A stretch of 64,000 nt of DNA. Source: a phage. A model generated the notes under the pieces. The model worked only from the letters and a program-made list of their open reading frames with translations, was not told where the DNA came from and did not search any database. Within the stretch, counting starts at the first letter, position 1, and each line of letters starts with the position of its first letter. Positions 23,905 to 35,707 of the stretch are shown here, piece after piece. The DNA lies in sequence record PZ534534.1, one strand, 5' to 3'. The translations under genes were made by a program, and so were the position numbers.

Positions 23905-25386
23905 TTACTTAGCGTACTCGATTAATTCCACAGTTTTCCCAAAGCTCGGGATATAATTTTTATTATACCCTTCGGTGAGAACCCATAAAGTATCGTACTT
24001 TTTCCACTTGTTGTCAACAGCCTTTTGTTCAAAGTTATGCTCAAAGTAGAGGTCGGTAAGGACGATGACATCTTTTGCATTCGGTATGTTAGCATCCAGA
24101 TACTCGAACACGCAGGCGGCTGTTGTGCCCCATGTTGAGTGGACCTCATAGTTAATCATCTCATCGATGTTACCGCGAGTGTATACTTTAACCTCTCCAA
24201 CCTCCGTTGACCAACAGAACATAGTAACCTTAAACTCTTTATACAAATTGCACAACCCGGTGATCTCATTGAACATTTTCTTTAAAGTTCTTTGTGAGAT
24301 CGACCCAGAAACGTCTAAAGCCACTACAATATCTATAGTGTTTTCCGGATTACGACCAGGAACAATAACGTGTTGATTCTTGTTTATAGCTCCAACTTTT
24401 CGCATTGTGGTGGTCAAAGACCCAGATCGGCGACCAGGTTTTCTGTAGGTTAACTCAGCCTTTCTTTTAGATAACATACGTTGCTTAATAATATCTATAT
24501 AATTGATTACAGGCTTGCCTCTGTTTTTGACAAACTCGCGCACCGCCTCGGGGCAACGACCTCCTGAAGCTTGCATTGCTGCTTCCAACATGTCACCAGA
24601 GTCCTGCATGGCCTGATCTTTGTCAGATTGACTGATTACTGGTTGCGGCTGATCATACCCCATAGCCTTTCCAAGATCATCACTAGTGCCACCGTTCCCG
24701 CTCATGTGATCATCGGTTTGTCGTTTATCTCCTTGGGAGTTCTCACCTTTACCGTTCTTACTTTTACCGCCATTCTGATCTCTTTGTTTATCAAGAACTG
24801 CATAGACGTTCTCAGCAATCCATCCATGAAACCTCATGTCGCAGTAGCAATTAGCTAAGAAGCCAAAAGGCTTACCTTTTACGAACTCAGTGCTTTTCCC
24901 CTTCGGGAAGAAAACACAAGGAGGCTTGCTAAAGTCAACCACAAGACCTGTGTTGATAACGTGATCACAAGCAATATTGAACAGTTCCGGCTCAAAGCTT
25001 TTACCACGGACCAGATGATCACAGATAATATGCCCCACCTCATGTGACAGAAGAAAGGCCACCTCTTTCACAGATTTTGGGGAATAGAAAACCTCAGCCA
25101 TCTCAAACTGCTTGTCAGTCAGAGATGCTTTAAGAATGGTTTTACGCTCATCCGCCAACCCCATAATGAACTCAGGGCTGTAGTAGATGCGTTTATGGTC
25201 GGTTGCCATGGTGGAGCACCATGTGTGGTTTTCTACGAACTGCAACCCTGACAGTAGTGTGCCATAAAACGGCAGCTTTTCAAGGAGATACATACGTGCA
25301 GCCTGCAACATTCTCAGGGCATCATCTTTCTGCGAGGCAATGATTTCTGAACTTCTGCTATCCATTAAAACTCCAGAAGGGGCCAT
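23905..25386 (-). CDS. VWA-domain protein with N-terminal HExxH metallopeptidase-like domain
   Basis: HEVGH zincin motif; MIDAS-like DVSGS in C-terminal region; 493 aa. Confidence 0.55.
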   Translation of the reverse strand: MAPSGVLMDSRSSEIIASQKDDALRMLQAARMYLLEKLPFYGTLLSGLQFVENHTWCSTMATDHKRIYYSPEFIMGLADERKTILKASLTDKQFEMAEVFYSPKSVKEVAFLLSHEVGHIICDHLVRGKSFEPELFNIACDHVINTGLVVDFSKPPCVFFPKGKSTEFVKGKPFGFLANCYCDMRFHGWIAENVYAVLDKQRDQNGGKSKNGKGENSQGDKRQTDDHMSGNGGTSDDLGKAMGYDQPQPVISQSDKDQAMQDSGDMLEAAMQASGGRCPEAVREFVKNRGKPVINYIDIIKQRMLSKRKAELTYRKPGRRSGSLTTTMRKVGAINKNQHVIVPGRNPENTIDIVVALDVSGSISQRTLKKMFNEITGLCNLYKEFKVTMFCWSTEVGEVKVYTRGNIDEMINYEVHSTWGTTAACVFEYLDANIPNAKDVIVLTDLYFEHNFEQKAVDNKWKKYDTLWVLTEGYNKNYIPSFGKTVELIEYAK

Positions 25387-25398
25387 TGGCCCCTGTCA

Positions 25399-26442
25399 TT
25401 ATTTAACGTGTTTGAAAATACCTGCCAACTCGGTCATTGTCATGCGGGTGGTCTTCATAAGATCTGTCATAGCTTTCTCCATAATTGGAGATACTACCAT
25501 AAAGTTTCCTTTAGTGAAACCTTTATTCCAGTCGGTCACCAACAGGGGTTTAAGTCCAGCTCCAAGACGTTCACCAGTTAAAGCACAGCATTTGCGAATA
25601 TACGAACTCTTAAATTGGCTGAATGACAGATCAACTTTCATACCTACATCGTAGAACGTTTGACAATAGAAAGTGTAAGCTTTGGCAATCTCAACATCAT
25701 CAGGTAGTGCAGGAACCTCTTCTGTAAGCTCCTCTTCGACCTCCTGAGTCTCTTTTTCCTCTTCATGCACCTGTTGCGTCATTTCTTCAATCTCTTCTGT
25801 GATAGGCTCGTTTACAATGTCGGAAATGTGCTTCTTGGGTGCACGATAAGTAACTTTAGACATCGGTAGCATATCTTCCTCCTCTTCTTCGTCAAAGAGT
25901 GCTAGTTTATCCTCTTCCGTTCCATATTGCAAGATGAAATCTTCAAAAGTATAATCACCTTTCAATTTCTCCATACGCTCTTCGCTCAGGTGGAGCATCA
26001 TCTGCTGGACAATTTTTCGATCAGTTTCGTCTTTAATCAAGACTGCAGTCTTTTTATCTACCAGACAGTCCTTTAGAGAGTTGCATCTCAATCCCACCAC
26101 ACAACAGTTATCAGCCGCATAAGGACCTTCATCATCTATCCGCTCCAGAGATGGGTAGAAAGGATTCCCCAGCCCGTTTTCATCTGTGTGCATGTCAAAA
26201 GGTATAAGGGTATAGTCGCATACTCCATCTCCTAAAAGTTTTTTACCAAATAGGAGGTATTCTTCCCATGACAGGTCGAACTCTATATCTCGTTTCCGTG
26301 CGTTATTCTGTTTGCGTCTATATTTTTTGAGCAAGCGCTCTAACTCTTCTGGTGTATAATATTTTTCAAGATTCATGAGTCGTCTCTCGTGCTCTGTAAG
26401 TGAAGAAATCGTATCAATTGTCTCAACAGATGTCAACATCAA
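25399..26442 (-). CDS. HNH-like endonuclease domain fused to acidic C-terminal region
   Basis: N-term NARKRDIEF...SLERIDDEGPY..DNCCVV..CNSLK resembles phage HNH nucleases; Glu/Asp-rich linker then MSKVTYRA segment. Confidence 0.4.
   Translation of the reverse strand: MMLTSVETIDTISSLTEHERRLMNLEKYYTPEELERLLKKYRRKQNNARKRDIEFDLSWEEYLLFGKKLLGDGVCDYTLIPFDMHTDENGLGNPFYPSLERIDDEGPYAADNCCVVGLRCNSLKDCLVDKKTAVLIKDETDRKIVQQMMLHLSEERMEKLKGDYTFEDFILQYGTEEDKLALFDEEEEEDMLPMSKVTYRAPKKHISDIVNEPITEEIEEMTQQVHEEEKETQEVEEELTEEVPALPDDVEIAKAYTFYCQTFYDVGMKVDLSFSQFKSSYIRKCCALTGERLGAGLKPLLVTDWNKGFTKGNFMVVSPIMEKAMTDLMKTTRMTMTELAGIFKHVK
25840..25868. repeat. 29-bp perfect inverted repeat, left copy
   Basis: Reverse complement equals TACCGATGTCTAAAGTTACTTATCGTGCA, identical to 27702-27730. 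Confidence 0.8.
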
Positions 26443-26449
26443 AAACGTG

Positions 26450-26478
26450 TTGACTTTACTCTAACTCCACAATATAGT
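26450..26478 (+). promoter_or_regulatory. sigma70-like promoter
   Basis: TTGACT-N17-TATAGT in divergent intergenic region upstream of 26519 gene. Confidence 0.5.
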
Positions 26479-26518
26479 GCACCCATTCGAAAGAAAACTA
26501 ACATAGGAGCACTTACTT

Positions 26519-27418
26519 ATGGCAAATCTTAACAGTTTTAGTACGCGGTGGAAACAGGACATAACAACCAATCTTTCAGCTGGGGACATCCTTTCTGCAA
26601 TTTACGAGGCTTTAGATGATAAAGCTACTTCAAAAGCGGTTTGTACCAACCCATTAATTCCTATAGTGATGAAGGTTATTGAGCGTAGATTGGTATCTGG
26701 GTCTGATAAGTGGACATATTTAGATAATGAAGGACACACCTATTCCAATGGGTATGTCGATATAAAAGTAGAATACGCGGTATCATACCGCCGGAGCGGT
26801 TCTGTAACTTTCAACTTCTCTGGAGGTTTTCGATCTCTGGCTACCTCACCTTTTGTTTCCTCAGAGGAGAAGTATGAGCTGCCATTTCTTTGGATGATGG
26901 CTAACGCGACAGGAAAAACCCCCGTTAGCATCCGAGTAAAATACAACTACAACGGATCTAGTAAGATCTATGCCGAAAGTGTCTCAGCAAGTTTTTATTT
27001 TGTGATGGGGGATGGAATCCTCAAACATATAAAGATGTGCGATATGCATGATGTTATAAATGAAGTGACTGATAAGAATGTTCTAGTGAAAGACCTCAAC
27101 AATTTTTATACACCTGGAGACTATTACGTCAGCCGTCCGCTGTGCATCTTTAATGCCGCACACCCTCTAGGTGAGTATTTGATCGCCAATAGCGATATTG
27201 CCAATAACCGCTTCGAGGTAGCAAGAGTTCAGAATGAGGTATTGACATCTTGCAAGAGCGGTGATAAGTTTACCGAAGAAGAGATGGGTGTTTTAGAAAT
27301 GATGGGATATAAGTGTAGCCTTTGGGTAGATGAGGTGTTTAATGATTGCATCTATGGACAGGATATTTACCCATTAAAGAAGTATACTGATACAAGTTTA
27401 ATTTATGCGAGGGTTTGA
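26519..27418 (+). CDS. hypothetical protein
   Basis: 299 aa ORF with AGGAG RBS; first gene of + strand block. Confidence 0.45.
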   Translation: MANLNSFSTRWKQDITTNLSAGDILSAIYEALDDKATSKAVCTNPLIPIVMKVIERRLVSGSDKWTYLDNEGHTYSNGYVDIKVEYAVSYRRSGSVTFNFSGGFRSLATSPFVSSEEKYELPFLWMMANATGKTPVSIRVKYNYNGSSKIYAESVSASFYFVMGDGILKHIKMCDMHDVINEVTDKNVLVKDLNNFYTPGDYYVSRPLCIFNAAHPLGEYLIANSDIANNRFEVARVQNEVLTSCKSGDKFTEEEMGVLEMMGYKCSLWVDEVFNDCIYGQDIYPLKKYTDTSLIYARV

Positions 27419-27693
27419 CTATGATGAAGGCATGTGGTAATGTATATTACGTCGGTGAACATGTTCAGGCAGACAGTGTGTGGAAATCTATTAAGTCCAC
27501 CACTGACGATGCCTTTCTGAGTGGACTATGTTTCCCCAATCCGGGAGACATCCTCCCTCATCCTGGAGATTTTGTTGTCAACAAGATGGACGGTTATACC
27601 GTGTGCCTGATGGTTGAAAAAATCTTTTTAGACACTAGACACAATCACCGTCTTGTGTTAAAATTTCAAGAATGTAAAATGACAATTGCCTAA
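27415..27693 (+). CDS. hypothetical protein
   Basis: 92 aa ORF, ATGA overlap with upstream gene. Confidence 0.4.
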   Translation: MTMMKACGNVYYVGEHVQADSVWKSIKSTTDDAFLSGLCFPNPGDILPHPGDFVVNKMDGYTVCLMVEKIFLDTRHNHRLVLKFQECKMTIA

Positions 27694-27701
27694 GGAGACC
27701 T

Positions 27702-27730
27702 TACCGATGTCTAAAGTTACTTATCGTGCA
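27702..27730. repeat. 29-bp perfect inverted repeat, right copy
   Basis: TACCGATGTCTAAAGTTACTTATCGTGCA spanning start codon of 27707 gene. Confidence 0.8.
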
Positions 27731-28063
27731 GCTATTTACTGCAATGAACACCCAATCAATAATGATGGTCACTGCCTTTTTAAAGAAAATCAATTGGGCT
27801 GTATTGTCCTCCCTGATGAAGGGGAAGGTTATCTGATTGCATTGACAGGGTTTGAACCTAAGGCTCTGGAAGCCAATCTGGACTACCTGGTAGAAGAGGG
27901 TGCTGCAGACCTGGTTGCCAATGGCCTCTCCATAAGCCTTGACGAAGTAGAGCGCTTCATGGGCAATTACCGTGTAGTGCGTGAGTTTACTATCGAGGTG
28001 GAAACTCCCGAGTGGGGTAGCCATGAAACTAATGCCGAAGAAAAAGAAGAGGAGGTAGAATAA
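27707..28063 (+). CDS. hypothetical protein with acidic C-terminus
   Basis: ATG 27707 preceded by AAGGAG; N-term MSKVTYRA encoded by the 29-bp repeat. Confidence 0.45.
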   Translation: MSKVTYRAAIYCNEHPINNDGHCLFKENQLGCIVLPDEGEGYLIALTGFEPKALEANLDYLVEEGAADLVANGLSISLDEVERFMGNYRVVREFTIEVETPEWGSHETNAEEKEEEVE

Positions 28064-28320
28064 TGAAAGTGCAGATCTTGACTAATGCCGAGAAGATGTT
28101 TATTGAAGATACACCTTTTGAAGCTGGTGAGCTACAGTTCGTTTATTTTGTTGACTTAGATAAGGTGTTTCCTGCACTGAATCTAGGTTTGGATGAAGTT
28201 CCTCATAAGGTTTTGTGCCAAGTTGTTCGTGCCTTAGCGGCAGAGGGGGAGTTCCACACCCTTCAAGATGTCCAGACCTACGGGTATCTTGAACTACAAC
28301 GAGAAGAAGAGGTGGACTGA
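28063..28320 (+). CDS. hypothetical protein
   Basis: 85 aa ORF, start overlaps upstream stop. Confidence 0.4.
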   Translation: MKVQILTNAEKMFIEDTPFEAGELQFVYFVDLDKVFPALNLGLDEVPHKVLCQVVRALAAEGEFHTLQDVQTYGYLELQREEEVD

Positions 28321-28322
28321 TA

Positions 28323-28703
28323 ATGGCTCAGTGGAAGACAACAGTTGACCTTCATGATCAGTGGTTAGGACGCATCACTGAAGACGGGAAGCTAGTGGAG
28401 TGGGACAATAAGCATGTTAGCGAGTTGGCAAGTATTGTGGCTGGCAAGTTACGCTCCAAGTTCCCTGAACAACTGGATCCTGATAGTTCAAAGTTCGATC
28501 CTGAGTTAGAGGATGTTGTATACTACTTCGACACCGTTGATGACTACGACGCGTGGTTTGCAGCACGGGAGCTTTACCCACAAGGCTCTGCTATGCGCCA
28601 GATGGAAGAAGATTATCCTCCGTGTGAGCAATTCAATAGTGCAATGACTTGCCTCTATGATTGGGCAGATAAGAACCTTGTCTGGATTCGGACTGCATTT
28701 TAG
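28323..28703 (+). CDS. hypothetical protein
   Basis: 126 aa ORF. Confidence 0.4.
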   Translation: MAQWKTTVDLHDQWLGRITEDGKLVEWDNKHVSELASIVAGKLRSKFPEQLDPDSSKFDPELEDVVYYFDTVDDYDAWFAARELYPQGSAMRQMEEDYPPCEQFNSAMTCLYDWADKNLVWIRTAF

Positions 28704-28747
28704 TGGGCAGGAATGGCGGCAAGGATGCTGCTTAAGGAGTAGTAGAG

Positions 28748-29017
28748 ATGTTATACCAGCAATATGAACTTCGTGCAGAAAAAGAGTTAAATTTTGACAA
28801 AGATATTCACAGATATTATTATGGGAAAGTTAGAGGGCAAGCAAGAAAGTGTACTCCAACACTCTTTTATGCCAGCAGACGACTAGCGCCAGAAGAGGCA
28901 ACAGCAGAAAGGGTTGCGTACAACTGGAGAGTCACGTATGATATTGACAGATTCGATGTGATATCTGTTTTGGAAAACTTTGAAAACACTTACACACAAG
29001 TAGAGGACTTTTACTAA
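28748..29017 (+). CDS. hypothetical protein
   Basis: 89 aa ORF, stop overlaps next start. Confidence 0.4.
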   Translation: MLYQQYELRAEKELNFDKDIHRYYYGKVRGQARKCTPTLFYASRRLAPEEATAERVAYNWRVTYDIDRFDVISVLENFENTYTQVEDFY

Positions 29018-30201
29018 TGTCAAGAAACGTATTCGAAAGTGGTCAAATCACTGTCCGTGAGTTGCCAGCTATTATTCAGTTTGCCCAACGTCATAGCCGA
29101 TCTGTCCTAATTTTGGGACCAATGGGTGTGGGTAAAAGCCAGGTGATGAAGCAGATCGCTGATAATATGTTCGGTGAGCGAGATGACAACCTTGTTGACG
29201 TGCGACTGTCAGATAAAGATCCTGCCGACTTATCTGGGCTACCTATCCCTGTAGAAGCGGATGGAACTACACGTACAGTGTTTGCAATTCCAGAATTTTG
29301 GCCTGCGGATCCTGACTGGAGCGGAATTATCTTTCTGGATGAGCTCACTCATGCAGATAACTACCTGCAAAAGGTTGCAATGCAAATTATGCTTGACCAC
29401 AAGTGCGGCACCTATGCATTCCCTAAAGGTTCTGTTTTTGTGGCTGCGGGTAACCGTTCTACAGATGGTGCGGTTCTTTCGGCGCTCGAAGCCCCTCTGG
29501 CTAACCGTTTTATCATTGTAGAGGTTACAAGCAATGCAGAGGTGTTTATTGAGGACTACGCATTCCTCAACGGGGTTCACTCCTCTGTAATTGGGTATCT
29601 GAAAAGAGTTCCATCAGCTATTGATAATTATGAGGCTATGGCTGAGATTAATTGTCCATCTTTTGCCACACCACGATCTTGGGTTGCTGCATCTGACATC
29701 TTGCACGATTTTGACAGCGGTATTATTTCTGACGCTATGGCCCGTGTTCTTCTACAAGGTGCTATTGGTCACACTGCAGCGGTAGAGATCTGGACTTACC
29801 ACACCAAGAAACGTAATTTACCGGAAATCGGTCGGATTATGGCAGGTGGCTGCAAAGAATACGTAGGTCCTAAGCAGCCAGACATTTTGTGGATTCTTGG
29901 ATCTGAAGGTTGTATCGCTATTCGCAATATGATGGAAAATGCAAGTATCTCAGACGAAGATCTTGTCAGCTGCGTGGCAAACTTCCTCGATTTCCTTTGG
30001 GAAAACTTCAAGGACGAGAACCGAGATTTTGTATTCTCAGTCTTTATGGCGATGATGAAACCTAATGCCTTAGGAAATGCCTTGCTTATCGGTAAAGGGC
30101 GTGACAAGATTGTTGCTCAGCTGATCAAAGCATACCCAAACCTGATGAAGATTGTAAAAGAGTTTGGTGAAGAGTTTAGCGCCATTTTGGCTAAAGCTTA
30201 A
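29017..30201 (+). CDS. AAA+ ATPase, MoxR/CbbQ-like
   Basis: Walker A GPMGVGKSQ, Walker B IIFLDELTHAD; 394 aa. Confidence 0.6.
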   Translation: MSRNVFESGQITVRELPAIIQFAQRHSRSVLILGPMGVGKSQVMKQIADNMFGERDDNLVDVRLSDKDPADLSGLPIPVEADGTTRTVFAIPEFWPADPDWSGIIFLDELTHADNYLQKVAMQIMLDHKCGTYAFPKGSVFVAAGNRSTDGAVLSALEAPLANRFIIVEVTSNAEVFIEDYAFLNGVHSSVIGYLKRVPSAIDNYEAMAEINCPSFATPRSWVAASDILHDFDSGIISDAMARVLLQGAIGHTAAVEIWTYHTKKRNLPEIGRIMAGGCKEYVGPKQPDILWILGSEGCIAIRNMMENASISDEDLVSCVANFLDFLWENFKDENRDFVFSVFMAMMKPNALGNALLIGKGRDKIVAQLIKAYPNLMKIVKEFGEEFSAILAKA

Positions 30202-30603: not shown

Positions 30604-30630
30604 TCCCCCGCTTCGGCGGGGATTTTCTAT
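30604..30630 (+). terminator. rho-independent terminator
   Basis: CCCCGC-UUCG-GCGGGG hairpin (same stem-loop as 4503-4518) followed by ATTTTCTATTT. Confidence 0.55.
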
Positions 30631-33131: not shown

Positions 33132-34337
33132 ATGATTTTCATCTACGAACATTTCAAAACCCGTAAAGAAGCACGAGACCGCCGTGCAGAACTTGAGAAG
33201 AAGGGTTTCACATGTGCCATTGAGAAAGGCGACACAACCTGGACACTGGCAGTTGGTGCCCCAGAGTTGTTCGATCCTGACCGTGACAGCGTCTGCTACA
33301 CCCGTGAGGATTTTGAAACCCGCGAAGAGGCCCGTTTATTTCGATACGGTCTGGAAGATAACGGTAAGTACGCCATGATCTTAGATTTAGGCGAAGGGTC
33401 CGTTAAACGTTGGGGCGTGGTATACCCACTGTGTGTTGTTCATGGTGTGGGGTTCACTGGGGTAGCAATCAAGTCAGAAGAACCTTTAGTAGAAGTCAAA
33501 GATCCGGTGCTGGAGGTGGTGAGCAGCGTATCTCAGCAACAGACTCGAAGTATTGAGCCTTTGGTAGTTATTTGTGGGGAACTCCTCCAGATCACCTGCA
33601 ACGAAGGCATTTTTGAAATTCGCCGCAGCGAAAGTGAGGAAGTTTACCAGAAAGTCTTCGACCATATCTCTGTTCAGGAATATGATGAGGCAATTGGTGA
33701 AATCCTTGTCTGGCTGGAACGCAAGAATGAGTTCACCACACTTGCAGACAACCTGGTCATGAAAGATGGTAAGCTCTACTACTACGGTGTAGAGATGCGA
33801 TCCACCATTGCAAAGAAAATTGAGAAAGATTATGCAGACGGAACACTGGATGACCGCTATGTGAAATTCCTCGTTCGCCTGCTGCGCAATCCTTCTGCAA
33901 AATCTGTAAACATGCTCTACGATTTTATGCAGGCCAACGATATCCAGATTGCAGAAGATGGTCGAATCATTTGCTACAAAGGGGTTCAGTTTAACGGCAG
34001 CAAGTGGGTGGATTGGCACAGTGGTAAAGTTCCACAATACCAGGGGGCTTTTGTATCCATGCCTCGTAACTTTGTAGAGGATGATCCGGAAGCTGCGTGC
34101 TCTTATGGCTTACACTGCGCCAGCAAAGAGTATGCAAAGAGCTACGGCACTGTAATGACTGTTATGGTTGACCCTGCAGATGTGGTTAGTGTGCCATACC
34201 AACACAATAGCGCTAAGTGCCGTGCATGCCGCTATGAGATTGTGGTAGCTCCGGAAGCACGCAAAGATGGAGACCCTATTGAATATGTAGTTGATCGTGA
34301 CGGTAACACTATCGACATTCTTTACGAGGAGGCGTAA
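33132..34337 (+). CDS. rIIB-like protein (by synteny)
   Basis: 401 aa ORF immediately downstream of rIIA-like gene; no motif confirmed. Confidence 0.35.
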   Translation: MIFIYEHFKTRKEARDRRAELEKKGFTCAIEKGDTTWTLAVGAPELFDPDRDSVCYTREDFETREEARLFRYGLEDNGKYAMILDLGEGSVKRWGVVYPLCVVHGVGFTGVAIKSEEPLVEVKDPVLEVVSSVSQQQTRSIEPLVVICGELLQITCNEGIFEIRRSESEEVYQKVFDHISVQEYDEAIGEILVWLERKNEFTTLADNLVMKDGKLYYYGVEMRSTIAKKIEKDYADGTLDDRYVKFLVRLLRNPSAKSVNMLYDFMQANDIQIAEDGRIICYKGVQFNGSKWVDWHSGKVPQYQGAFVSMPRNFVEDDPEAACSYGLHCASKEYAKSYGTVMTVMVDPADVVSVPYQHNSAKCRACRYEIVVAPEARKDGDPIEYVVDRDGNTIDILYEEA

Positions 34338-35707
34338 TGGAAAAAGGGCAGTATGATGTAGGCACAGATGCTGCCCTCGTTGCAATCATGAGTGGTGAGA
34401 ATGTCTTCGTTTCAGGACCTGCAGGTTGTGGGAAGACGTATCTCATCAACATGATCCAGTCAATGTATGGAGACTCTTGCATAACGGTTGCCCCGACAGG
34501 GGTAGCCGCTTTAAACGTTAATGGAGCAACAGCACACCGAACCTTCGATCTTGCAGCAGGTGTGAGCATGGAGTCAGACTGGACCGCAATAAGGGCAAAA
34601 ACAGCAAAGCCTTTGAAAAGCAAGGCATTTACCATCCTGATTATCGATGAAATCTCTATGATCCGTGCTGATAAGTTTATAGAGATGGATAGGAAACTCC
34701 GCTTCCTTCGAAAAAATGACAAACCTTTCGGAGGCATACAGGTCATATTGTTTGGCGATTTTTACCAGGCACCTCCTGTTGTCTCTTCTATGGAGAAGGA
34801 AGCCTACTTCAACTTCTACCATACGGACCTGTGTTGCTATACCGAATCTTGGAAAGAGCTTGACCTCCACAACATAGCCTTAGTAGATCAGTTCCGACAG
34901 GAGTCTATTCGATTTGCCACAATGCTCAACTGTGTTCGTGAGGGTCGTCGCATAAAAGAGGTTGTAGCAGAACTTAATGCTCGCTGTTACAAAGGCGGTG
35001 TACCAACAGACGCTCTCACAATTTGCGCCACCAACAAACAAGCAGAGGAAGTGAACAGAAGGTTCTATGATGCCATCAACGCCCCAGAGAAGGTATACAC
35101 TGGTGAAATGAAGGGTAAGTTTCCCTCCACCCTGCCAGTTGAGCAGGAGATGAAGTTGAAAATTGGCATGAAAGTTATGATAACCGCCAACGATGTTGAC
35201 CCGACGCACAAGGTACCTTATTATGTTAACGGAACACGTGCCACAATTGTTAAATTTAAGAACAAGGCGGTGGTGGTAGAGCTTGAAGATGGAACACAGG
35301 TTGACATAGAGCAGAGGTTGTGGGAGAATAACGAGTATAAGCCCTCTCAGAGATACAACATTGCAGAAAGGAAGATGGAGAAGTTTATAGAGAGGGTAGT
35401 GATTGGGTCATACAAGCAACTTCCTCTGAAATCTGGGTACGCCGTAACATCTCATAAAAGTCAAGGACTTACGCTAGATTGTTACAACCTGGACCTTGGA
35501 AAGAACGGAGCTTTCTCTCCTGGGATGACGTATGTTGCTTTGAGTCGGGTTAAGACAATACAAGGAATAAACTTGTTGCGTCCACTAAGAGAAGTTGACA
35601 TTATTGTTGACCCGCGAGTCGTAGAGTTTTACAATACAACATTCCCTGACTTAGACAAAATTGTCAGGAAAGATTTTGAAACCAGAGCAGAAGAGGGGGA
35701 CGTATGA
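34337..35707 (+). CDS. SF1B DNA helicase (Dda/Pif1/RecD-like)
   Basis: Walker A GPAGCGKTY, Walker B ILIIDEISM, plus GDFYQAPPV-type motif. Confidence 0.6.
   Translation: MEKGQYDVGTDAALVAIMSGENVFVSGPAGCGKTYLINMIQSMYGDSCITVAPTGVAALNVNGATAHRTFDLAAGVSMESDWTAIRAKTAKPLKSKAFTILIIDEISMIRADKFIEMDRKLRFLRKNDKPFGGIQVILFGDFYQAPPVVSSMEKEAYFNFYHTDLCCYTESWKELDLHNIALVDQFRQESIRFATMLNCVREGRRIKEVVAELNARCYKGGVPTDALTICATNKQAEEVNRRFYDAINAPEKVYTGEMKGKFPSTLPVEQEMKLKIGMKVMITANDVDPTHKVPYYVNGTRATIVKFKNKAVVVELEDGTQVDIEQRLWENNEYKPSQRYNIAERKMEKFIERVVIGSYKQLPLKSGYAVTSHKSQGLTLDCYNLDLGKNGAFSPGMTYVALSRVKTIQGINLLRPLREVDIIVDPRVVEFYNTTFPDLDKIVRKDFETRAEEGDV

Follow-up and report, generated by a model that had tools for sequence, protein, structure and literature searches.

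The window analysed here comprises 64,000 nucleotides (nt) of phage DNA (sequence record PZ534534.1), and the phage to which it belongs is a Vequintavirus, one of the rV5-like Escherichia myophages. Over the 7-kb region that concerns us it shares 95-98.5% identity with more than 100 Escherichia phages of this genus, the near relatives including JeffSchatz, magaca, FFH2 and MaxBurger. The region holds a gene for a protein with a VWA domain behind a zincin-like domain and a gene for a MoxR-class AAA+ ATPase, which an earlier note on this DNA had taken for functional partners encoded around a divergent promoter region. Both open reading frames (ORFs) appear in the ORF list at the positions claimed there (23905-25386 on the minus strand, 493 amino acids (aa), and 29017-30201 on the plus strand, 394 aa). 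They are thus on opposite strands, 3,630 nt apart. The leftward arm that departs from the strand switch consists of a gene for an Srd-like 'anti-sigma factor' followed by the VWA/zincin gene, both on the minus strand. The rightward arm starts with a 299-aa ORF, four small ORFs, an 89-aa ORF and the ATPase gene, all on the plus strand, and continues beyond the ATPase with a 126-aa ORF, a SleB-like hydrolase, rIIA, rIIB and a helicase. The note's picture of opposite strands, some 3.6 kb and a divergent promoter region holds with respect to the distance and the candidate back-to-back promoters, but neither gene adjoins the divergent promoter: on the left arm the Srd-like gene comes first and the VWA gene next, and on the right arm the ATPase gene is the seventh. 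A sign flip of the GC skew at about 19-26 kb in the window is in line with the change of transcription direction.

The VWA/zincin protein was matched by two Pfam families in N-to-C order, both above their gathering scores: DUF2201_N, a 'putative metallopeptidase domain' (E = 2.3e-28; score 100 bits, cut-off 23.2), and DUF2201, a 'VWA-like domain' (E = 3.6e-11; score 43.7 bits, cut-off 26.4), which is a COG3864-type architecture. These values put the VWA/HExxH assignment far beyond chance, and the N-terminal HEVGH motif to which the earlier note had pointed was recovered at residues 115-119. In an alignment of 38 homologues from phages and bacteria, with identities down to 20%, the residues H115, E116, H119 and H124 (HExxHxxxxH), A139 and D141 are invariant, as are D358, S360, S362, T421 and D445, which make up a complete metal-ion-dependent adhesion site (MIDAS); N145 is invariant in a subset of 21 sequences and at least 90% conserved across all 38. 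The AlphaFold2 model (mean predicted local distance difference test score, pLDDT, of 83.8) is helical in the N-terminal domain and alpha/beta in the C-terminal one, with a linker of poor order between them, and the MIDAS pattern DxSxS...T...D sits in a Rossmann-like alpha/beta fold, as is proper to a VWA domain. Among the fold matches of the latter is the VWA domain of NorD. Part of the linker is predicted to be flexible, with pLDDT values under 50 for residues 212-235 and 291-294.

For the N-terminal domain the PDB was searched with a profile of the first 205 residues alone. All matches below E = 1 were M48-like or minimal zincins, namely selecase MJ1213 (0.0016), an M48 peptidase (0.005), HtpX (0.03) and BepA (0.08), and each of these four aligns by its catalytic motif with the HExxH and the strand before it; a PDB search with the single VWA protein sequence gave no match. 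Taken together, the marginal statistics and the invariance of the motif are consistent with a zincin, for which the invariant H124 or D141 are candidate third zinc ligands, and the HExxH domain would be expected to have peptidase activity. The true start of the protein is probably the ATG at 25365, which would give 486 aa, because a GGAG Shine-Dalgarno sequence lies 5 nt upstream and the same start is used in GenBank and in the 536-member cluster P0121. A GC-rich palindrome, AGGGGCCAATGGCCCCT, is found at 25378-25394 between the Srd-like gene and the VWA gene. The initial ATG of the 493-aa ORF falls within it, the likely start follows shortly downstream, and it may serve as an attenuator, as a processing site or in translational control.

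Both genes of the pair are already annotated in more than 100 genomes, with labels in GenBank that vary between 'putative metallopeptidase', 'VWA-like domain containing protein' and 'HNH endonuclease' for the one, and 'ATPase' and 'MoxR ATPase' for the other. The label 'HNH endonuclease' is attached to PHROG 1314 and PHROG 3118 (in the window 23905-25386 and 25399-26442) and has been copied into many GenBank records. On the VWA/zincin protein, for which Pfam gives DUF2201_N and DUF2201, it is wrong. The 25399-26442 protein matched no Pfam family at E <= 0.1, and its PHROG relatives are Srd or sigma-70-decoy families. The label looks like a propagated mis-annotation that masks the MoxR-VWA pairing.

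The ATPase carries the elements of an AAA+ core, with Walker A, Walker B, sensor 1 and conserved arginines, and G37, G39, K40, S41, D108, E109, N146, R147 and R164 are invariant in 39 ATPase sequences. Its amino-acid sequence is 100% identical to that of the 'MoxR ATPase' of phage V5 (rV5; DQ832317). Scans of the window protein itself gave no AAA_3 match in Pfam, sub-threshold matches at the P-loop level only in NCBIfam and PADLOC, and ClpB/ClpC Walker-A matches only in a single-sequence PDB search. Matches of this kind speak neither for nor against MoxR, hence we turned to transitive homology, profile and fold evidence. Relatives of about 360 aa, found at E ~1e-44 with 31-36% identity over ~85% of the query, carry Pfam AAA_3 (the MoxR domain) and AAA_5; in a member-by-member scan 15 of the 39 alignment members matched both, and bpMoxR was matched by five distant relatives. 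The family profile matches midasin, an AAA_5-type ATPase with a MIDAS domain, at 1.2e-9. Finally, the AlphaFold2 model (pLDDT 85.8, predicted template modelling score 0.78) has beta-hairpins at residues 75-90 and ~129-135, at the positions of the helix-2 insert and the pre-sensor-1 hairpin, and its 19 best PDB fold matches are all NorQ or CbbQ chains (E = 8e-8 to 5e-6). The MoxR-class assignment, also made in the earlier note, is supported by these three independent lines. Profile searches and, for the ATPase, indirect evidence thus placed the two proteins in DUF2201_N plus DUF2201 and in the MoxR class, and not in unrelated families. Behind the core the ATPase has a C-terminal helical extension (modelled helices at 288-393, with lower pLDDT toward the end) of about 120 residues, by which it exceeds the ~255-residue core of NorQ/CbbQ (NorQ targets of 241-257 residues). 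The protein presumably forms a hexamer.

Table 1. Coordinates of the features at the VWA/zincin-ATPase locus (window positions)
Feature	Position	Strand	Remarks
VWA/zincin gene (DUF2201_N + DUF2201)	23905..25386	-	longest ORF, 493 aa
VWA domain, C-terminal	23908..24363	-	complete MIDAS
MIDAS D445	within 24046-24060	-	
MIDAS T421	within 24121-24132	-	
MIDAS DVSGS	24301-24315	-	residues 358-362
Acidic Gly/Ser-rich linker	24427..24771	-	~aa 206-320, between the two domains
Zincin-like domain, N-terminal	24772..25386	-	~aa 1-205
AxDxxxN motif	24952-24972	-	conserved
HEVGHIICDH	25015-25044	-	
HEVGH	25030-25044	-	residues 115-119 (493-aa ORF)
Divergent control region	26408..26478	.	back-to-back sigma-70-like promoter candidates
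Leftward promoter-like site	26436-26408		TTGACA-17-TACGAT, extended -10
Inverted repeat	26432-26454		holds both -35 boxes
Strand switch	26443-26518		
Rightward promoter-like site	26450-26478		TTGACT-17-TATAGT
89-aa ORF	28748..29017	+	stop codon overlaps ATPase start codon (TAATG)
MoxR-class AAA+ ATPase gene	29017..30201	+	394 aa
Walker A GPMGVGKS	29116-29139	+	
Walker B IIFLDE	29326-29343	+	
Sensor-1 N146-R147	within 29443-29457	+	
R164	within 29497-29511	+	
C-terminal helical extension of ATPase	29827..30198	+	~aa 271-394

We have surveyed the pairing of the two genes in 80 viral contigs with ATPase relatives and in contigs found via individual homologues, which were scanned with hidden Markov models for both families. 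The VWA gene lies less than 400 nt downstream of the ATPase gene on the same strand in 72 loci, and within 2.5 kb downstream on the same strand in another three. At ten loci the contig ended before a VWA gene could show, and not one locus had room enough yet was without it. Outside the Vequintavirinae the VWA gene therefore directly follows the ATPase gene on the same strand in 75 of 75 informative loci. The split arrangement, with the VWA gene upstream on the opposite strand at 3.55-3.85 kb, was seen in six loci, namely the window (where the VWA gene is not next to the ATPase gene but on the other strand at 3,630 nt), four close relatives and the 147-kb contig L012, all of them Vequintavirinae-like; L012 has kept both genes at 53% (ATPase) and 43% (VWA) identity to the window. 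The pair is also adjacent in the chromosome of Sulfurivermis fontis and in an N4-like roseophage and, by coordinates, in the Rak2-like jumbo phage fHe-Yen9-04 (g208/g209) and a Pseudomonas N4-like phage, and the operon arrangement occurs in at least five unrelated lineages, where genes for thymidylate synthase, dUTPase and exonuclease are found as neighbours. Relatives of the ATPase and the VWA protein were detected by tblastn (E <= 1e-8) in 786 and 530, respectively, of 50,697 phage records. Within the genus both genes are intact in about 118-119 Vequintavirus genomes, and the nucleotide differences between the ATPase gene of the window and those of three relatives are all synonymous. We consider the identity of the two proteins and their partnership highly probable, and the two would be expected to interact physically in this phage as well. 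A correlation of identities over 61 loci was tried as a test of co-evolution and discarded: the Pearson coefficient of 0.99 is an artefact of a few identity tiers, the Spearman coefficient is 0.22 (p = 0.09) and most loci belong to one clade. In Sulfurivermis fontis (L007, AP018724, 3839-8445) the AAA_5 ATPase and DUF2201 genes are followed by an unannotated 370-aa gene and then by a ferrochelatase gene, which, as an isolated case, may point to a cellular role of the family connected with metals.

A probable origin of the split is suggested by gene order. In the loci L005 and L006 (35-42% identity) helicase and hydrolase genes point leftward and the ATPase and VWA genes, in this order, rightward. 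In the window and in L012 the VWA and Srd-like genes point leftward, whereas the rightward series runs via the ATPase to the hydrolase, rIIA, rIIB and the helicase. Because of the synteny of the flanks with L005, L006 and L012, we infer that one inversion of the ATPase-bearing segment, in an ancestor of the rV5-like phages, accounts for the split. One breakpoint would be in the divergent intergenic region, the other would have parted the ATPase gene from the VWA gene, and after the inversion each gene would have come to stand on one arm of the same divergent control region. At the equivalent position of rV5, between genes 10 and 11, bidirectional promoters have been described by Kropinski et al., gp11 being the Srd homologue (PMC3606486). 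In the region as a whole promoter-like sites are not above the shuffled expectation (20 versus 15.1 +/- 4.0), and since the scan is not enriched over shuffles the individual promoter and terminator sites are candidates only. The best promoter-like site of the region, TTGACA-17-TATTAT (11/12), lies at 28794-28822 on the plus strand inside the 89-aa ORF, and a strong terminator-like hairpin, CCCCGCTTCGGCGGGG with a T-rich tail, follows the ORF downstream of the ATPase at 30606-30621 on the plus strand; together they suggest a short ATPase-centred transcription unit in the right arm. Comparison of the window with phage magaca gave a nucleotide identity of 94.1% for the VWA gene and 99.5% for the ATPase gene, which indicates a recombination mosaic boundary between the two.

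Functional data are provided by the HIDEN-SEQ preprint (2025), in which transposon sequencing was applied to phage Bas54 (bioRxiv 10.1101/2025.11.20.689424). Bas54 is MaxBurger, with 97.6% nucleotide identity over the region and the same gene order; bas54_0063 is the ATPase gene, whose product has 100% amino-acid identity to that of the window, and bas54_0055 is the VWA/zincin orthologue. On K-12 both were classified as 'Non-essential', with 60/64 and 81/86 TA sites hit, respectively (bioRxiv 10.1101/2025.11.20.689424). In the published resampling table that compares K-12 with the clinical isolate CFE311, the log2 fold change (log2FC) on the latter is -7.23 (q = 0) for bas54_0063, -5.48 (q = 0) for bas54_0140, which encodes a 99-aa unknown protein, and -2.20 (p = 0.0009, q = 0.009) for bas54_0055, while the immediate neighbours bas54_0054, 0056, 0062 and 0064 are unchanged and not significant (bioRxiv 10.1101/2025.11.20.689424). 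Because these neighbours are unaffected, the effects are gene-specific and not polar. Moreover, clean knockouts of bas54_0063 and bas54_0140 show a specific sensitivity to DS-28, an uncharacterised defence system of two genes that was cloned from CFE311 (bioRxiv 10.1101/2025.11.20.689424). When its nature was looked for in the literature consulted, DS-28 was found to be described just as a small, uncharacterised, plasmid-associated family. The gene bas54_0140 is outside the window, the end of which corresponds to ~91.4 kb of MaxBurger.

An anti-defence effect is thus evident from the clean knockout for the ATPase orthologue, whereas for the VWA orthologue the evidence is a transposon depletion on the whole strain. 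Rather than independent phenotypes, the two genes share a conditional phenotype on CFE311, of unequal strength and with the VWA datum coming from the whole strain. This overlap of the Bas54 phenotypes supports the functional partnership that had been proposed, as does the fact that the genes are strictly adjacent in other lineages of phages and on a bacterial chromosome. The further statement that the role of such genes in phages is poorly defined is partly outdated, as the pair type was described in 2021 (PMC7824862) and the ATPase orthologue was reported as anti-DS-28 in 2025 (bioRxiv 10.1101/2025.11.20.689424). In the same rightward block bas54_0068, the DNA helicase gene downstream of rIIB (orthologue in the window at ~34307-35704, plus strand), is another conditionally required gene, its depletion on CFE311 being as strong as that of the ATPase gene (log2FC -6.32, q = 0) and its status on K-12 non-essential. 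In Extended Data Table 8 of the preprint the sheet 'resampling_K-12_vs_CFE303' has the command line and the numbers of the CFE311 sheet (Data S6, S7), and the CFE303 results seem to be missing from the HIDEN-SEQ supplement.

Considering all of this, the best explanation as a whole, to which we assign a probability of roughly 0.6, is that the products of the two genes make up a single ATP-driven machine for protein remodelling, each being one half of it, which is accessory and acts in counter-defence. The counter-defence role of the pair, taken by itself, is tentative and falls a little short of an even chance. The machine would be an accessory and not a core function, dispensable on K-12 and important on a host with DS-28, and its likely action would be to remodel, and possibly to cleave, a defence or host protein. 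Dispensability on K-12, a position among early genes and the phenotype with DS-28 suggest as this target a host defence or defence-related protein and not a virion component. The proposed mechanism is founded on the analogy with NorQD, where the NorQ hexamer takes a finger of the NorD VWA domain into its pore and remodels the NorD linker (PMC13036017). By this analogy a hexamer of the phage ATPase would hold the VWA/zincin protein as adaptor, with the MIDAS site gripping either the target or the ATPase; the MIDAS site and/or the acidic linker would couple the complex to the target protein, and ATP-driven remodelling would expose the target to the HExxH domain, which can probably cut it, or would activate that domain. 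The VWA protein would accordingly be expected to have a part in the anti-DS-28 activity. Its partial phenotype could reflect some adaptor-independent activity of the ATPase, the use of bas54_0140 as an alternative adaptor, or insertions that are tolerated in one of the two domains of the VWA protein. The split in the rV5-like phages may have let the ATPase gain bas54_0140 as a second small adaptor. A wider generalization, in which the pair serves rV5-like, N4-like and Rak2-like jumbo phages generally as an ATP-powered machine against host defences, the VWA/MIDAS adaptor capturing a host immune protein such as a DS-28 component, the AAA+ ring unfolding it or prying it apart and the zincin cutting it, appears rather doubtful; if true, it would be the first chaperone-protease type of phage anti-defence system.

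Several observations weigh against the explanation of a joint machine in counter-defence. The zincin assignment depends on marginal E-values (0.0016-0.08), and the matches of both fold searches with the VWA protein concern its VWA domain only. The ATPase of the window is below all Pfam gathering scores, its best matches being AAA_14, AAA_5 (16.7 bits versus 22) and bpMoxR (15.1 versus 27). The 80 viral loci of the survey belong mostly to one environmental clade, so that they are not independent and their count overstates independence. As to the phenotype, the anti-DS-28 genes of the HIDEN-SEQ authors are bas54_0063 and bas54_0140, and the VWA gene bas54_0055 goes unmentioned (bioRxiv 10.1101/2025.11.20.689424); its depletion is partial (~4.6-fold), was seen on a whole clinical strain and not with DS-28 alone, and comes from one data set. 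Finally, the two genes are now in different transcription units and their recombination histories can differ, as the magaca values of 94.1% and 99.5% illustrate. Alternatively, the partners could have become uncoupled in the rV5-like phages after the inversion, the ATPase working by itself or with a different partner, for example the 99-aa protein bas54_0140, the VWA/zincin protein acting separately, and the co-depletion on CFE311 being caused by different host factors. Unequal effect sizes (-7.2 versus -2.2), separate transcription units, different recombination histories, the pair validated by the authors and the fact that CFE311 has several defence systems and many differences from K-12 are all in favour of such a separation. 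We nevertheless regard it as unlikely: every Vequintavirinae-like genome examined, L012 included, keeps both genes intact, the motifs for MoxR-VWA coupling and catalysis are invariant, the pair was never found apart outside the Vequintavirinae-like lineage in the surveyed loci, and the depletion of the VWA gene is gene-specific and non-polar, its flanking genes being unchanged.

Two further roles would leave the partnership in place and change its purpose. The pair could be a virion-assembly chaperone that folds or assembles structural proteins, for instance tail fibres, and processes them with the peptidase domain. This is the published proposal for the same architecture in group 2.2 jumbo phages, made by analogy with the tail-development proteins p618/p892 of ATV (PMC7824862), and it would suit the unusually complex tail-fibre set of rV5-like phages as well as the shifted fitness of several tail-fibre genes on CFE311 in the same experiment. 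Both genes, however, tolerate insertions at 94% of the TA sites on K-12 without a change of fitness class, they stand among early and DNA-metabolism genes (Srd-like, rIIA/B, helicase) outside the structural module, and the genes beside the pair in other lineages are those for thymidylate synthase, dUTPase and exonuclease. Moreover, the phenotype of the ATPase knockout was reproduced with DS-28 cloned into K-12, where receptor usage is constant, and a role in assembly is in our view very improbable. The other possibility is the maturation of a phage or host metalloenzyme by metal-cofactor insertion or enzyme activation, as performed by NorQD (FeB into cNOR), CobST (cobalt chelatase) and CbbQO (Rubisco activase). 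The closest solved structures are indeed NorQ and CbbQ, the NorD VWA domain is among the VWA matches, enzymes of nucleotide metabolism are often neighbours in other phages, and the Sulfurivermis pair is two genes away from the ferrochelatase gene. But the closest fold tells the AAA+ clade and not the client, no single client gene is conserved beside the pair across the lineages examined, the invariant HExxHxxxxH domain is without counterpart in NorD, CbbO and CobT, and the sole known phenotype is defence-specific. A metal or enzyme chaperone is accordingly improbable, and the remodelling machine directed at a defence or host protein is preferred.

A comparison with known systems places this machine in a broader context. 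A pair of a MoxR AAA+ ATPase and a vWA protein with an N-terminal metallopeptidase was described for group 2.2 jumbo phages, with virion assembly as the proposed role (Iyer, Anantharaman, Krishnan, Burroughs, Aravind 2021, Viruses 13:63; PMC7824862). As in the window, this is a MoxR-class ATPase with a VWA protein that has an N-terminal HExxH (DUF2201_N + DUF2201), and g208/g209 of the Rak2-like fHe-Yen9-04 are detectable homologues of both window proteins. The jumbo-phage genes are adjacent and co-directional, whereas those of the window are 3.6 kb apart on opposite strands, and the proposed role in assembly is at odds with the dispensability of the Bas54 orthologues on K-12. In Bacillus phage 0305phi8-36, MoxR-like and vWA-like genes are part of a deletable island (PMC3357382). 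The direct orthologue of the window ATPase, bas54_0063 of Bas54/MaxBurger, was coupled in the preprint with bas54_0140, without a mechanism. The ATPase model finds its best structural matches in NorQ-NorD (Paracoccus, Jhaorihella) and CbbQ-CbbO, which also have a VWA partner with MIDAS, and in the working mechanism of NorQ-NorD the ATPase acts on the flexible linker of the VWA protein (PMC13036017). NorQ and CbbQ share, however, just 16-20% sequence identity with the window ATPase and are without its ~120-residue C-terminal helical region, NorD and CbbO have no zincin domain, and the clients are metabolic enzymes (cNOR, Rubisco).

RavA-ViaA of E. coli and p618/p892 of ATV are built on the same principle of a MoxR AAA+ ATPase with a VWA cofactor, but they represent other MoxR subfamilies, have no peptidase domain and are not among the top matches of the window proteins. 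RavA has an LdcI-binding LARA domain. The ATV pair shows the use of a MoxR-VWA-type pair by an archaeal virus (PMC7824862, PMC7159879). A couple of this kind is also central to the MoxR-vWA ternary conflict systems of multicellular bacteria, in which peptidase domains are sometimes fused to the vWA protein (Kaur, Burroughs, Iyer, Aravind 2020, eLife 9:e52696). The MoxR-vWA couple is thus shared with the window and is there used in biological conflict, but on the side of host defence, together with variable effectors and a third component that is always required (VMAP, iSTAND, FtsH or beta-propeller). A third gene of this sort is not evident in the window, and no corresponding Pfam domain was seen among the called neighbours of the pair at the other loci inspected, no systematic search for a third gene having been made; the bpMoxR match of the window ATPase is below threshold (15.1 bits versus 27).

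The DUF2201 and MoxR-class AAA+ families, the phage pair type and the annotations of the genes are hence already known. New, and modest, are the split of the operon in the Vequintavirinae, probably by an inversion across a bidirectional promoter, and the co-depletion of the VWA partner, which was not remarked upon by the HIDEN-SEQ authors. MoxR-VWA pairs are among the commonest unexplained two-gene modules of large phages, and we know of no phage example with a demonstrated mechanism. The rV5-like phages lend themselves to study, as neither gene is required in the laboratory and the ATPase has a plaque phenotype with DS-28, a defined host system of two genes. Because the operon is naturally split, moreover, either partner can be removed or altered with no polar effects. 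Whether the VWA/zincin protein is needed for the DS-28 phenotype bears on the choice between counter-defence and assembly for phage MoxR-VWA pairs.

With respect to the neighbouring genes, it is uncertain whether the 89-aa ORF belongs to the system. It is called 'ATPase' or 'MoxR ATPase' in several records, a Pfam scan of the ORF gave no match, in L012 it does not precede the ATPase gene, and on CFE311 the orthologue bas54_0062 shows no depletion (log2FC +0.24). The first gene of the right arm (26519-27418, plus strand) is annotated genus-wide as 'putative alpha 1-3 fucosyltransferase'; it matched no Pfam family at E <= 0.1, and the corresponding PHROG 12338 is listed as of unknown function. 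Among the relatives of the 7-kb region are also sixteen unannotated 'Campylobacter phage' records (MG065654-MG065690, host Campylobacter jejuni) with 95-97% identity to the E. coli Vequintavirus, and the Campylobacter host label of these records looks doubtful.

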